A stretch of 64,000 nucleotides of DNA from a virus: positions 1-64,000 of IMG/VR virus record IMGVR_UViG_3300025853_000041. One strand, 5' to 3'. The translations under genes and the position numbers were made by a program. The notes beneath the pieces were generated by a model. That model did no database searches, was not told where the DNA came from, and worked only from the letters and a program-made list of their open reading frames with translations. Every line of letters begins with the position of its first letter. Positions within the stretch are counted from its first letter, which is position 1. Below are positions 2,683-23,329 of the stretch, in pieces.

Positions 2683-4626
2683 TTAATGTACATCTGCGTA
2701 ATTTGCTCCCCATTCTGTGCTGTATCCAATTGAAACATTGAGTCCAAGCTGGTTATTCACCTGGGTCATAGCATCTTTAACTGCTTTGTCCACATAACCT
2801 TTAAACTCTCTTTTACACCATAATAAAAACTCATCATGATATTGCATACAAACTTCAATTCCTAAGGGATTCACTATTTCTCTAAACTTTTTCAACCAGA
2901 AATCAAAAACATACACACCTGTTGATTGATTCAATGTGGAAAACCTGTCTTTTTCAGCTTTTAGAAACATCCAAAATCCTGAAACAGGGTTGTATAACCA
3001 CTTTTGATTCTCAACAATTTTAACTTTAGCGTCCTTTGCTGTGCTTTTAACAGCAGCATTTCTCTTCCAATAAGTTTTATGTAGTTTAGTTGCAAAAGGT
3101 AAATCACATTTTAAAGTTTCTGCAATTTTAGGTGGTCCAGCTCCATAAGTAGCTGAGAAATTTACTATTTTTGCTTTTCCTCTAATATCTTTAATTGTAT
3201 AATACCTCTCTGCATCTTCCTGGCTTGAAAATTTAAACTCGTTGCCTAATTTATCCTTTTGAGCTTCAATTTCTTTATAGAAAACTTCGTCTTCTTTAGT
3301 AATCATTTCAGCTAAAACAGCAATATCAATATGAGGGTCAAATCCTGGGACTCTCATTTCTGTCACATAATCTGGGTCATAATTATATATGTAGTGTTGC
3401 TTAGTGTTGTCCTCTAGCCCACTGATATCACTCCCACACATAATGTATGAAGCATCAGGAACTGTTAGACAACCTCTAACTTCTTCTCCATAATATTTAC
3501 CAACTCCAGGTAAATTTGCTATTGGTTTAGCATGTTGCATCCTAAGGGTATTTGTAAAACCTTGAGCTCTTGAATAAACATATCCATTTTCATCTACACT
3601 CTTTAAAAATGCTTTGAAAAGACTAAATCTATGCCTTGCTCTATATAGTCCTGCTAAATCCTCAAGATAATCATACTTTTTAATTAGGTCTTTTACACTT
3701 GAGCACAATCCTCCACCAAAAGGTAAGGACACTTGTGGCACTTTCTCATCTTTTGCATTAACTTTGAAAGTAATGGGCTCCCAACCTAATGAGAATAACC
3801 AATCTTTCAGTTGTACAGGAGATGTAGGACTGCCTTTTGTAGTAATTACTGTTGTATCTTCAGGTAATTTCTTAAGTTTCAACAACTCTTTCCATTTGTG
3901 CCCATGAGCTGAGAGTTCACCATCTTTTTTGTACATTACTTTTGGTTGCTCTTTATCAACAATCCTGGGCATATACTGGGAAAGATTGGTAATCTTCTCA
4001 TCTATAATGAATTCAAGGTCTAATTTTGATTTTTCAGCCAACCTTAAATCTAATTTAATCTTTACTTTTTCTTGCTCTCTAAGACAATCCATTTTAAAAC
4101 CTAAATACCCAAATAATCTGAGTACATCTGAAATGTTATTATCATAAATCTGCATTGTGTAGTCCATTTGAAAGTGAAATAACTTCCTATTTATCTCTAC
4201 ATCCACCTCACATCTCTTGGTCATTTTTCTAATGAAATCTTCCCAAGTTTCTCCTGATAAAGGTCCAGCCCACTCATCATCAGCTACTACAACTTTTGGA
4301 TATTTGAATCTTTCTCCCCAAGCCTCTAAGCCATGTAGGAATCCTTTGACAGGATAATGATAGAATGAAATACTTAAAGTGTCAATTAATGTAGCTGTGA
4401 TTTTAATTCCTAATACTTTTTCAAGTGCAGGAATATCATAATCAATAATATTATGTCCTACTAAAACTTTTTGCTTCAGCACTAATTCTTTAATTTCTTC
4501 AGGATTAGTTAAAGTCCCTGACTGTATCAGTTCTCGACTATTATAAATCTCATAAGAAAATGTCCAAATTTTTGTAATACTATCTAGTAAGCCATTACCT
4601 TCTATATCAAAAAGGCAATAATTCAT
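2683..4626 (-). CDS. polA: family A (T7-like) DNA polymerase with 3'-5' exonuclease
   Basis: ExoI FDIEG, ExoII GHNIIDYD, motif A GSDISGLE, motif B RGKAKIVNFSATYG, motif C QYHDE. Confidence 0.95.
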   Translation of the reverse strand: MNYCLFDIEGNGLLDSITKIWTFSYEIYNSRELIQSGTLTNPEEIKELVLKQKVLVGHNIIDYDIPALEKVLGIKITATLIDTLSISFYHYPVKGFLHGLEAWGERFKYPKVVVADDEWAGPLSGETWEDFIRKMTKRCEVDVEINRKLFHFQMDYTMQIYDNNISDVLRLFGYLGFKMDCLREQEKVKIKLDLRLAEKSKLDLEFIIDEKITNLSQYMPRIVDKEQPKVMYKKDGELSAHGHKWKELLKLKKLPEDTTVITTKGSPTSPVQLKDWLFSLGWEPITFKVNAKDEKVPQVSLPFGGGLCSSVKDLIKKYDYLEDLAGLYRARHRFSLFKAFLKSVDENGYVYSRAQGFTNTLRMQHAKPIANLPGVGKYYGEEVRGCLTVPDASYIMCGSDISGLEDNTKQHYIYNYDPDYVTEMRVPGFDPHIDIAVLAEMITKEDEVFYKEIEAQKDKLGNEFKFSSQEDAERYYTIKDIRGKAKIVNFSATYGAGPPKIAETLKCDLPFATKLHKTYWKRNAAVKSTAKDAKVKIVENQKWLYNPVSGFWMFLKAEKDRFSTLNQSTGVYVFDFWLKKFREIVNPLGIEVCMQYHDEFLLWCKREFKGYVDKAVKDAMTQVNNQLGLNVSIGYSTEWGANYADVH

Positions 4627-7935: not shown

Positions 7936-7949
7936 CTATTAGATACTAG

Positions 7950-8326
7950 TGGAGACGCTGGGACTCGAACCCAGGTCTTTCATATATCAATAATAATATT
8001 TTATACAGCTTCACGTTTCTTTAAATTCTTTACGCTAGATTAGGACCAACTGTTAAGTTGATACTCCACCATCAAGTTAGTTACTCTTGAATACTTATAT
8101 TACATAGTTATGGACTATGCAGCCATCTGAAGTTCACCAGTAACAACATCATTAAGATGCTTACTAGCAAGAATGTTGTGAACAACACTCATGTTTGCTT
8201 CAATCTGTGCAGTTTCCTGCGTGGTAATTGTGTTTCCATTTAAGTAAACTCACCTTAGTTTTAAACAGTTATCTCTCTGTGCTGAACATTATTAAATCGC
8301 TATAAAATCAATTCCATGTCGTCCCC
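7950..8326 (-). ncRNA. ssrA: tmRNA (transfer-messenger RNA)
   Basis: 5' GGGGACG pairs with 3' CGUCUCC-A and includes the G3.U alanine identity pair; T-arm CUGGGUUCGAGUCCCAG; 377 nt long; internal tag frame 8237..8115 ends in LQMAA*. CCA is not encoded (ACUA). Confidence 0.92.
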
Positions 8327-14229: not shown

Positions 14230-14367
14230 TTATGGAGTGCATAGTAAGACTTTCGGCTTACATATCATCTCCTGTTTAAACTTTTCTTTCTTACTTTTAA
14301 GGCTGTAACTCAGACTTTCTGCTGAGCTACACCCTGTAAGTAATACAAGCACTAACAAATACTTCAT
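14230..14367 (-). CDS. small lipoprotein (45 aa, not in track)
   Basis: Manual translation MKYLLVLVLLTGCSSAESL...LLCTP*; lipobox LTG-C. Confidence 0.6.
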   Translation of the reverse strand: MKYLLVLVLLTGCSSAESLSYSLKSKKEKFKQEMICKPKVLLCTP

Positions 14368-14810
14368 CCCTGAGGTTCAAAGTATTGTCTATGCTTTGCC
14401 ATGGCTGTTACACCAAAAATGTTAGTAAAACCAGGCTTACAGCTTGGTACTCTCACCTTATCTTTTAATTCTTCTTTTAAATCCTGAAGAAATACTTTCT
14501 TTGGGCTCATAATACTGTTTTTAAATTAATATTAGTTGTGAGGAATATAATAATATTCCATATCCATAGTTAACATTATAGTATGTCCTTCTTTAGCTGG
14601 GATTAATTCTACTTCTTCCCCTCTATTAGCTCGTTCAAGTTGTTCTGTCGATATTCTAAGCTTATTAGCAAACAAACCCATAAATCCACATTATTATTAA
14701 AACTATAATTAAAGCTATCATACCTGTCCTACCCTTGTCTTCAAATTTATCATATTCTTTCATTGTCTTGATTCTTCTGTATTAAGACTAAAAAACAAAT
14801 TAGTCGGGTT

Positions 14811-14846
14811 AAACAAAAATAGTAAGCTGAGTGTTAGCTTACTGTT
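14811..14846 (-). terminator. intrinsic terminator closing the large ncRNA candidate
   Basis: Minus strand AACAGUAAGCU/AGCUUACUAUU hairpin followed by UUUGUUU. Confidence 0.65.
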
Positions 14847-15585
14847 ATATCCTTTTATTCAGGTTTCCCTAAAATACACACACCTACATTACTGCAGGTA
14901 GATATAATGTCCACAAGTTTCGATGCTTGCCATCTTTTACAAGTTGAGTCATAACTTTGCTTTCATACTAACTTCTCCTGGTAGAGATTCAAAGACTCCC
15001 ATCTTTTAGATAAATATTACTAACTTTGTTTACGAGTAGTCTTGAGAGACTATCTAGTATCTACATATAACCAATAGGTGCAGTAGAATAAGGACATTGT
15101 TATCAACAGGTCTCAATATGTTTTCTCTTGTTTAGTTTGTAAACTAAGCAGATAAGTCAAATAATGGAAGTCTTATTGAGTTGTATATCGTGCTACCTTT
15201 TGAGTAGTTTAGATATCAACTTCCATTTGCTTTCAGGTGTCAAACCTACTAACTTGCATAATGCTTTTCCTCAGTGCATTTCTGCAACCAAATACTTCAC
15301 ATAACATAATAACAGCTCTTTACAGACGACAATCTGTTTACACCATTACCTACTATATAATTTATTGGCATTTCTGCCTCAGCTCCTCATGACAAGAAGG
15401 AACATATTACACTTTTACTCTGTTGAGCCATTCCATGTAATACAATATATAATACCTTTCTGTGAAATGCAAATAAATTTACATCACAAGTAAAACTCTG
15501 TTAAGTTTTAAATTTTACCTGTTTTATACCATTGCTGGTTTATCCTTATGAGCTCGAAGGCAGCCCAATATCTTAAAATCGCTAT
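14811..15585 (-). ncRNA. candidate large structured ncRNA (~770 nt, ROOL/GOLLD size class)
   Basis: No ORF of 60 aa or more on either strand; five GNRA-capped hairpins, all reading GNRA on the minus strand; several long-range and crossing helices; terminator at the 3' end. Boundaries are approximate. Confidence 0.65.
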
Positions 15586-15594
15586 TAATATAAT

Positions 15595-15634
15595 AAAAAA
15601 CAGCATCTGAGTACCGATTAAACTCAGATGCTGT
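15595..15634 (-). terminator. intrinsic terminator
   Basis: Perfect 13-bp stem ACAGCATCTGAGT/ACTCAGATGCTGT followed on the minus strand by a U-tract. Confidence 0.75.
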
Positions 15635-15754
15635 AACATAAGTAGGCTGTAAGTCACCATACTTTGACTGCAACTATCACACAGTCCATATTAATGTGAC
15701 CAGGTGTTGCACACCATTAAGAGCCTCAAGGAGAGAAGGGCTCAGTCACAATAA

Positions 15755-16168
15755 TTACTCTTGGATTTCTCCGAAGACAATAATCTCAATCTCTTGCCAA
15801 GTATAACAGTCTTTTAGAGGTAAGTTCATAGCCCTAATCTCTGCACTGTCCTGCTTAGCAACATCTCCTGCATAATGGTTATGGTAACAGTCTTCCTGAT
15901 ACATATTTATAACCTCATCAACTAAATCAAATAGAATAACATCAGGGTCTTCACCCTCTTCATAATATTCTACTTCAACAAATATCCAGTCATCTTCAGC
16001 ATCATTTGTGCTATCATAAATGACCTTAACACCACCATCAACTTGTTCTAATATGATTTCACAACAATTTTTATTGCTATGAATGTGGTGCTCTTCAGTT
16101 CTATTTATCCACGCTAATGTAAAAATAGAAGAACAAACTAATAATAAGATTATATAAAATTTTCTCAT
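15755..16168 (-). CDS. secreted or anchored acidic protein
   Basis: N-terminal signal; D/E-rich mature region. Confidence 0.7.
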   Translation of the reverse strand: MRKFYIILLLVCSSIFTLAWINRTEEHHIHSNKNCCEIILEQVDGGVKVIYDSTNDAEDDWIFVEVEYYEEGEDPDVILFDLVDEVINMYQEDCYHNHYAGDVAKQDSAEIRAMNLPLKDCYTWQEIEIIVFGEIQE

Positions 16169-16654
16169 GATGATTTGGTTTTATATAGTGACTACTTGTT
16201 ATCGTAGTCAACTATATCGTTAATACTAACTAAACTGCCTGTTGGAGTTAAATACAATACTCTTTTCATAACTTTAATTTAAAAGATTAATACTAAATTA
16301 AAAGCAAGATGGACACACAAACTATCTGTTCCTCAAACCTACCACAGGTTAATGAATGAGTTTTAGATGTGTAATCACAAATGGTTTTCAGTAACCTTGT
16401 GTGTCCTGGCTTTATCTTCGACAACCCTACATAACACTATTCCAAATGGTTAATAAGGATAGCAGAATATATGTTTCGACGCTTCTCTGAGCCTTTTCAG
16501 CCTTGATAACTTGCCTAATTAAATTGTGTACTGCGTTAACTCGTCTTATCAAGAGCCTTTAATATAGGTTACTGTCAATTCAGCTCAGCCTATAACCTTT
16601 GTACACAATAATATAATAAGTAGTTTGTCTTCTTACTTAGGAATACGTCGAATA

Positions 16655-17639: not shown

Positions 17640-17660
17640 GAATTAGTTAGGGTCTTGAGT
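17640..17660 (-). promoter_or_regulatory. repeated upstream motif, candidate phage early promoter (copy 1)
   Basis: Minus strand ACTCAAGACCCTAACTAATTC; 20/21 identical to 18055..18075. Confidence 0.5.
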
Positions 17661-22904: not shown

Positions 22905-22934
22905 TTGTATATATTAATATTTTTATTAATTTTG
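22905..22934 (+). promoter_or_regulatory. Bacteroidetes sigmaA promoter
   Basis: TTG-N19-TAATTTTG upstream of 22958. Confidence 0.65.
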
Positions 22935-22957
22935 CTTCAGAATTAAATTAAAAGCAA

Positions 22958-23329
22958 ATGCAAGTAATATCAAACATACAAAAAGTCAGTAAGTACGACT
23001 ACTATGTTAAGCATTTAGAGATGATAAACATTCTTTTACCTGAGAAAGATTTCCCAGAGAAGATGTCTATTAAAGAGATTGAAGTTTTGGCTGCATTCTT
23101 ATCTCAAGATAAAAGTCTTATAGAAGAGGACATGTTTAATGGAGTCGTAAGGAAAAAGGTTATGGCAAAGCTGAATCTTAAACCTGGTGGTCTCGGAAAC
23201 CACCTAAAAAAATTAATAGAAAAGAGATATTTATCGAAGAATGATATCACAAAGAAAATAGTGATGAAATCATTTTTAATACCTATTGATAATCATCAAG
23301 GGTACAGAATTAAATTAGTAAAAATATGA
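22958..23329 (+). CDS. winged-helix DNA-binding protein
   Basis: MSIKEIEVL...VMAKLNLKPGGLGNHLKKLIEKRYL wHTH pattern. Confidence 0.6.
   Translation: MQVISNIQKVSKYDYYVKHLEMINILLPEKDFPEKMSIKEIEVLAAFLSQDKSLIEEDMFNGVVRKKVMAKLNLKPGGLGNHLKKLIEKRYLSKNDITKKIVMKSFLIPIDNHQGYRIKLVKI

Follow-up and report, generated by a model that had tools for sequence, protein, structure and literature searches.

The window, as we call the whole 64,000-nucleotide stretch of DNA that was analyzed, belongs to a viral record of 105,181 bases that is rated complete. On its minus strand, an interval free of credible open reading frames (ORFs) runs from the stop codon of a 137 amino acid gene at position 15755 to the start of the next small gene at position 14763. 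The first-pass annotation had proposed a giant non-coding RNA here, in a region without a credible ORF, and the longest ORF within it is indeed no more than 51 amino acids, whether translation table 11, TAG as glutamine, or table 4 is used. Alternative codes (TAG as glutamine, table 4, or TAA as glutamine) yielded no credible gene in the region, and each of the TAA-as-glutamine frames requires 5-8 read-through codons. The extent of the RNA gene was refined to positions 14817-15570 (minus strand, 754 nt) using the nhmmer match to a family profile, homology to the metagenomic locus L077, and covariation among 25 members. A strong terminator-like hairpin at 15600-15634, with a stem of 13 bp and a U-run behind it (-23.2 kcal/mol, z -4.9), belongs to the upstream 137 amino acid gene and lies outside the RNA, 30 nt before it. 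This hairpin had been raised as a caveat to the original proposal, together with the lack of an obvious dedicated promoter; both caveats hold, no promoter being seen between the hairpin and the RNA. At the other end, the predicted 3' terminator is present as a hairpin at 14820-14844 followed by a U-run at 14812-14819, where intrinsic termination is likely, judging from a listing of terminator-like sites and the hairpin fold.

Direct nucleotide comparison did not at first lead to relatives of this RNA. BLASTN searches with the element gave no match in 50,697 phage records or in 24 related crAss-like records, and the copy in locus L080 likewise found none in the phage records; at identities of ~55-60%, BLASTN is too weak for RNAs of this lineage. 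Used as single queries, the flanking 137 and 163 amino acid proteins and a 765 amino acid ORF did not lead to related viral loci, and the upstream 137 amino acid protein has three homologues in a large protein collection. An alignment-based metagenome scan with the family of the 137 amino acid protein provided the first key homologue, L077, in which a stretch with few ORFs comes after the protein homologue and can be aligned to window positions 14816-15547. The window RNA and L077 positions 2810-3521 are 60% identical over 736 nt (E = 6e-33), with long invariant blocks lying between hairpins whose two strands change together. Two invariant blocks served as search patterns: an exact 22-mer was found in 17 viral loci, and a degenerate 24-mer from the 5' end in 59 loci in viral contigs. 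With the nhmmer family profile, the element is recognized in 64 loci from viral and metagenome contigs, 40 of which are full length at 708-811 nt; the BLAST links of relatives to the window have E-values from 1e-10 to 6e-33. A 20-mer scan of bacterial genomes gave exact matches in four of them, namely two Prochlorococcus single-cell assemblies, one Aliarcobacter MAG, and one Ilyobacter MAG, but because none matches the family profile, these were treated as chance and rejected as hosts.

The 137 amino acid protein itself (window 15755-16168, minus strand; L077 2195-2617; L078 88-504) is hydrophobic at its N-terminus and conserved as FGEIQE at its C-terminus; the motifs CC, CYHNH, and CY.WQ are invariant, and no Pfam or PHROG family is matched. 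The window and L077 have its gene next to the RNA, whereas L078 does not. The 95 nt between its stop codon and the terminator hairpin (window 15660-15755, minus strand) fold as a closed unit of several hairpins (-29.5 kcal/mol, z -2.3) that is unalignable with L077.

The homologues allow the coding question to be asked again, namely whether the hairpins are incidental to a series of very short genes or to the remains of a gene in decay. The neighbouring genes of this arm are tiny (32-49 amino acids), and two minus-strand ORFs of 49-50 amino acids extend into the 5' edge of the element (15508-15673), as such an explanation would have it. However, no ORF is conserved across the members, the mismatch rates at the three codon positions (0.39, 0.37, and 0.42) lack codon periodicity, and of the 24 indels relative to the nearest homologue, 3 are multiples of three and 21 are not. 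Covariation over 38 helices is overwhelming, and we judge the probability of a set of short or decayed genes to be negligible; the 754-nt element is non-coding.

Folded as a single sequence, the element reaches -188 kcal/mol (z -2.26 relative to shuffles), which is mildly unusual, and because this is only modestly better than shuffles, the proof of structure has to come from the homologues. RNAalifold predicted 143 pairs from 15 sequences, 106 of them with compensatory changes. Pair counts were based on an alignment of 25 non-redundant full-length members, the structure of which comprises 197 pairs in 38 helices, two of them pseudoknotted. Overall, 90.8% of the alignment cells are paired, compared to 68.8% in shuffled alignments and 36-43% with the partner positions shifted by 1-3 columns; the corresponding covariation scores are 0.658, 0.24, and 0.11-0.13. 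Both sides changed in 168 of the 197 pairs, and not one of 500 shuffles reached any of the observed structure measures. Covariation among homologues, on which the first-pass annotation had made its proposal depend, is present, and the element is a genuine, intricately folded structured RNA.

The approximately 38 conserved helices form two domains, joined via a pseudoknot and a variable A-rich linker. All five GNRA hairpins claimed from the single sequence are found with exactly the coordinates and sequences proposed, and all show compensatory changes across the 25 homologues: ACCA-GCAA-UGGU (15528-39), GGCA-GAAA-UGCC (15367-78), UGCA-GAAA-UGCA (15275-86), CCUGCA-GUAA-UGUAGG (14883-98), and AGG-GAAA-CCU (14861-70), all on the minus strand and corresponding to helices 4, 13, 18, 36, and 37 of the alignment. 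The proposed pseudoknot is real, as both of its crossing helices are supported by covariation. Helix A pairs 15219-15227 with 15163-15171 (88% paired, double changes in 6 of 8 tested pairs; helix 21), and helix B, which crosses it, pairs 15174-15180 with 15112-15118 (89% paired, double changes in 8 of 8; helix 24). The two long-range helices that had been suggested fared differently. The one between 15092-15098 and 14906-14912 is 99% paired, with double changes in 4 of 6 tested pairs (helix 26), whereas that between 15517-23 and 15105-11 pairs in only 6-15 of the 25 sequences and was rejected, the 15105-11 strand pairing instead with 14939-14947 (helix 25). The 5' end is connected to the 3' domain by a 3-bp helix (alignment columns 12-14 with 813-815, 92% paired).

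The family to which this RNA belongs became apparent from its 3' half. RF02032 is a 416-position Rfam model of the conserved GOLLD 3' domain, with a gathering cut-off of 150 bits. Rfam scans at gathering thresholds of the 64-kb window and 38 related loci placed nothing over the element, nor did a scan of 1.9 kb (14300-16200) at E<=10. When nine small related loci were scanned permissively, however, RF02032 was placed on six; each of these matches lay over the 3' half and spanned the whole model, with scores of 116.9, 100.3, 85.7, 70, 68.1, and 57.6 bits (E-values from 2e-30 to 1e-12). In the window, a cmscan of a 451-nt slice (14790-15240) matched RF02032 at 14824-15224 on the minus strand, covering positions 1-416 of 416 with 39 bits (E = 5.9e-9), and the copy in a related crAss-like record (L056) scores 51.7 bits. 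The wider scans were blank because the window RNA and every scored member of the lineage lie below the cut-off. That cut-off is an operational inclusion rule and not a biological trait, although automatic Rfam annotation would omit the element. Neither the E-values nor the chain of homologues nor the common motifs depend on it, and we therefore file the element as an evolutionary member of GOLLD.

The first-pass annotation had left open a diverged ROOL or GOLLD RNA or a new class; the end-to-end match to RF02032 bears out a diverged GOLLD and speaks against a new class. ROOL (RF03087), a large ornate phage and prophage RNA that is often near tRNAs, forms an RNA-only cage, and is of unknown function (PMC5737381, PMC12286853), resembles the element in general class, but it was excluded, as neither its sequence nor its structure gave a match at E<=10 in the 1.9 kb or in two narrow slices. 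Group I and II introns and RNase P, which had also been put forward for checking, gave no Rfam match in the 64 kb at gathering thresholds, in the 1.9 kb, or in the narrow slices; an intron reading is further rejected on the grounds that the upstream 137 amino acid gene is complete to its conserved C-terminus.

The 3' domain occupies 14817-15227, with the RF02032 match lying within 14824-15224. It starts with a UCAAAAG-loop hairpin, the 22-mer CUAAACUACUCAAAAGGUAGCA at 15191-15212, which aligns to the UCAAAAG hairpin of RF02032. The alignment to the model also shares a CUCAAG/CGCAAG-loop hairpin, a UAC..GNRA..GUG hairpin, and the terminal hairpin with its ..CUCA loop, and all four are conserved in the 25 members. 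Flanked by strands of the two pseudoknot helices, A and B, is the A-rich linker (15120-15162), which is unalignable and variable in length (alignment columns ~493-591); its counterpart in the GOLLD RNA env-38 is a disordered linker (PMC12286853). The terminal hairpin (14820-14844) aligns to the last hairpin of RF02032 and is the equivalent of L27; its stem covaries (helix 38), its conserved loop is AACACUCA (14828-14835), and the CUCA of that loop is invariant in 25/25 members. The ACAC within the loop (14831-14834) pairs with an upstream GUGU linker (14876-14879) in a tertiary pseudoknot. Two of the four pairs covary, with canonical pairing in 25/25 members for each: column pair 873:920 is GC in 18 and AU in 7, and column pair 872:921 is UA in 21, AU in 2, GU in 1, and CG in 1. 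Cryo-EM of env-38 showed that L27 pairs with J24/26 (PMC12286853), and the pairing here matches that interaction by position rather than by residue-level alignment.

Two further features tie the lineage to GOLLD. A tRNA lies inside the linker in 6 of the 64 loci (tRNA-Ser, Leu, or Asn in L100, L114, L120, L133, L134, and L136), and a tRNA within the linker is a known GOLLD trait (PMC12286853). In addition, a GOLLD sequence catalogued in RNAcentral (URS0000710B35, from the Kretsch 2025 supplement) has the same UAUCUAAACU..UCAAAAG..GCA signature. On sequence and model alignment, the 3' domain is homologous to that of GOLLD.

The 5' domain (15228-15570) carries three of the five GNRA hairpins and helices 2-20, nearly all with double changes, and is 50-61% identical to its relatives. 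Near its beginning is the conserved block AGGAUAAACCAGCAAUGGUAUAAA (15523-15546), from which the degenerate search pattern was taken, including an ACCA-GYRA-UGGU hairpin that is invariant or covarying in 25/25 members (helix 4). No matching Rfam model was found over this domain. Its putative counterpart in the env-38 cage is the cap domain (PMC12286853), and a comparison of short motifs by eye finds UUGAG-hairpin-CAAUAAGAA common to the two.

Two other explanations were weighed. The element could represent a class of giant phage RNA of its own, which resembles GOLLD in size and setting but is not related to it: on the element and 38 related loci, every Rfam family stays below its gathering score, the 5' domain has no Rfam model, and within the lineage the two domains are conserved to about the same degree, unlike in textbook GOLLD. 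Such independence is hard to square with end-to-end RF02032 alignments at E-values of 5.9e-9 in the window and down to 2e-30 in relatives, with shared signature loops and covarying tertiary pairs between L27 and the linker, or with the linker tRNAs of some relatives and the catalogued GOLLD of the same signature, and we hold a new class to be very improbable. The other explanation is a modular locus, in which a GOLLD 3' domain and an unrelated 5' RNA with a separate function are fused or share a transcript. The halves are separate three-dimensional domains in the solved structure and are said to evolve independently (PMC12286853), Rfam models the 3' half only, and in some jumbo-phage loci the nhmmer matches cover only one half. 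Yet both halves occur together in 40 loci, in the same order and with the same spacing, the 5' end is tied to the 3' domain by the 3-bp helix, and the 5' half shares the UUGAG-hairpin motif seen by eye in the env-38 5' domain; an unrelated 5' RNA thus has very little probability indeed. Overall, a diverged GOLLD RNA gene in a crAss-like phage is the best explanation, with a probability of roughly 0.9, and the element belongs to a large sub-threshold GOLLD lineage of uncultured phages.

The window RNA would be transcribed together with the minus-strand early/middle gene arm and would end at its own terminal hairpin and U-run. Directly after the U-run, ~35 nt before the next gene, is AACCCGACTAATT (window 14798-14810, minus strand), which is one mismatch from ACCCNNACTAATT, found ahead of three other minus-strand genes at 17641, 18056, and 18349. 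Motifs of the ACCCNNACTAATT type have 6 matches in the window versus 1.4 expected, and a similar ACTCGACTAAGT occurs just after the GOLLD of L081 and L090. In four other loci, GOLLD is followed on its own strand by a Pistol self-cleaving ribozyme (RF02679, 55-56.5 bits). In L082 (3451-3512, minus) and L095 (2050-2111, plus), the ribozyme lies directly against the terminal hairpin, and in L080 (4605-4666, plus) and L092 (1979-2040, minus), it is 225-270 nt downstream. The ribozyme may set the 3' end of GOLLD in these loci. In the open-access literature, one paper (PMC5737381) mentions both Pistol and GOLLD without linking them, and no other paper with both was found.

The suggestion that the carrier is a crAss-like phage is borne out by its large terminase subunit (TerL), portal, and major head protein, all of which match crAss-type PHROGs. 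TerL is 61% identical to that of Flavobacterium phage FpV4, and the host is probably of the Flavobacteriia type. TerL proteins of the crAss type (25-33% identity) were detected in 23 of the 50 GOLLD-bearing IMG/VR records searched, and in 7 of these 23, a major head protein of the same type was also detectable at the distance expected, though in none of the records of 185-409 kb; other carriers include jumbo phages with tRNA arrays. A genome-wide search with RF02032 did not recover even the copy in the window, making its negatives unreliable, and it was replaced by nhmmer with the family profile on eight fully fetched, near-complete relatives (TerL 57-82% identical), none of which has a GOLLD copy. 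The two crAss-like copies, those of the window and L056, are 51% identical, whereas the window copy is 61% identical to L077 or L118; the gene is therefore sporadic in the clade. No annotated protein family recurs beside the RNA across the loci, and the search for conserved neighbours found only clade-level synteny of unannotated proteins. In two GOLLD-bearing crAss-like records, TerL and the major head protein are interrupted by TAG codons only, with 9+2 and 4 in-frame TAGs in G028 (C1:8082-9944 and 89895-91202) and 2+1 in G070 (C1:90554-91759), a pattern that suggests TAG reassignment; a relative, G007, has a tRNA with anticodon CTA at 22924-23000.

ARAGORN called no tRNA gene in the whole 105-kb genome. 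A tmRNA, not called by that program, is present at window 7947-8326 (minus strand; Rfam 57.3 bits, full length), on the GOLLD strand and 6.5 kb downstream of the RNA, and tmRNA genes are also near GOLLD in L100, L102, L110, L114, and L138. Across the lineage, tRNA or tmRNA genes occur in 32 of the 64 loci, in every case on the GOLLD strand and never opposite it, and 15 are within 500 nt. Several of the eight GOLLD-free relatives, on the other hand, have tRNA arrays. As the literature says only that GOLLD is "often" near tRNAs, a tRNA neighbourhood is not defining for the family.

GOLLD RNAs (RF02032; Weinberg et al. 2009) are among the largest and most elaborate bacterial and phage RNAs known and have no known function; a member of the family would be expressed as a stable RNA that rises during lytic growth. 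The likeness of the window RNA to GOLLD extends over the homologous 3' domain, the arrangement of two domains with a pseudoknot and a variable linker, the linker tRNA in some relatives, the terminal loop that pairs with an upstream linker, and a phage setting in which half of the related loci are co-oriented with tRNA arrays. At 754 nt, it is ~80 nt shorter than the 833-nt env-38 and thus of a similar size class. It differs from GOLLD in its score of 39 bits against a 150-bit gathering cut-off, in its terminal loop, AACACUCA, and in its carrier, a crAss-like phage without a tRNA gene, and from env-38 in the invariant ACCA-GYRA-UGGU hairpin of the 5' domain, which was not seen there. No paper pairing GOLLD with crAss-like, Flavobacterium, or Cellulophaga phages was found in the open-access literature. 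Structured-RNA candidates have been mined by covariation from IMG/VR, the same sequence collection (Fremin et al. 2023, PMC10690425); the motifs of that survey are 29-151 nt, and a 754-nt RNA is accordingly not described there as a unit.

Cryo-EM of env-38 revealed an RNA-only 14-mer that forms a hollow cage, with the 5' domains as caps and the 3' domains as rings (Kretsch et al. 2025, PMC12286853). By homology, the window RNA would self-assemble without protein into a large, closed homo-oligomeric cage, in which its 5' domains would be the caps and its 3' domains the rings; by this analogy, it probably forms an RNA-only cage. Our best guess is that such a cage would serve in trans, as a scaffold or container acting on translation or RNA metabolism in the course of lytic growth. 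That role cannot depend on phage-encoded tRNAs, since the window phage has no tRNA gene. We also entertain, as a tentative and rather doubtful extension, that the lineage is a distinct branch of GOLLD missed by annotation, all of it below the Rfam cut-off, with its own 5' cap domain marked by the invariant ACCA-GYRA-UGGU, common in environmental crAss-like phages of ~90-125 kb and in jumbo phages, and independent of phage tRNA genes; the cap may alter the size or stoichiometry of the cage relative to the 14-mer.

The window RNA is a new, divergent member of the known GOLLD family and not a new kind of RNA. Its match was recovered by scanning a narrow, 451-nt slice after wide scans had missed it, and other claims of new large phage RNAs merit the same recheck. 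The size of the sub-threshold lineage, 64 loci reached from two short patterns, implies that GOLLD is more widespread in uncultured phages, crAss-like ones included, than catalogue scans suggest. That no protein family travels with GOLLD fits an RNA-only machine. Finally, a complete 105-kb phage that has GOLLD without any tRNA gene, and close relatives that have tRNA arrays without GOLLD, argue against GOLLD holding or serving phage tRNAs.
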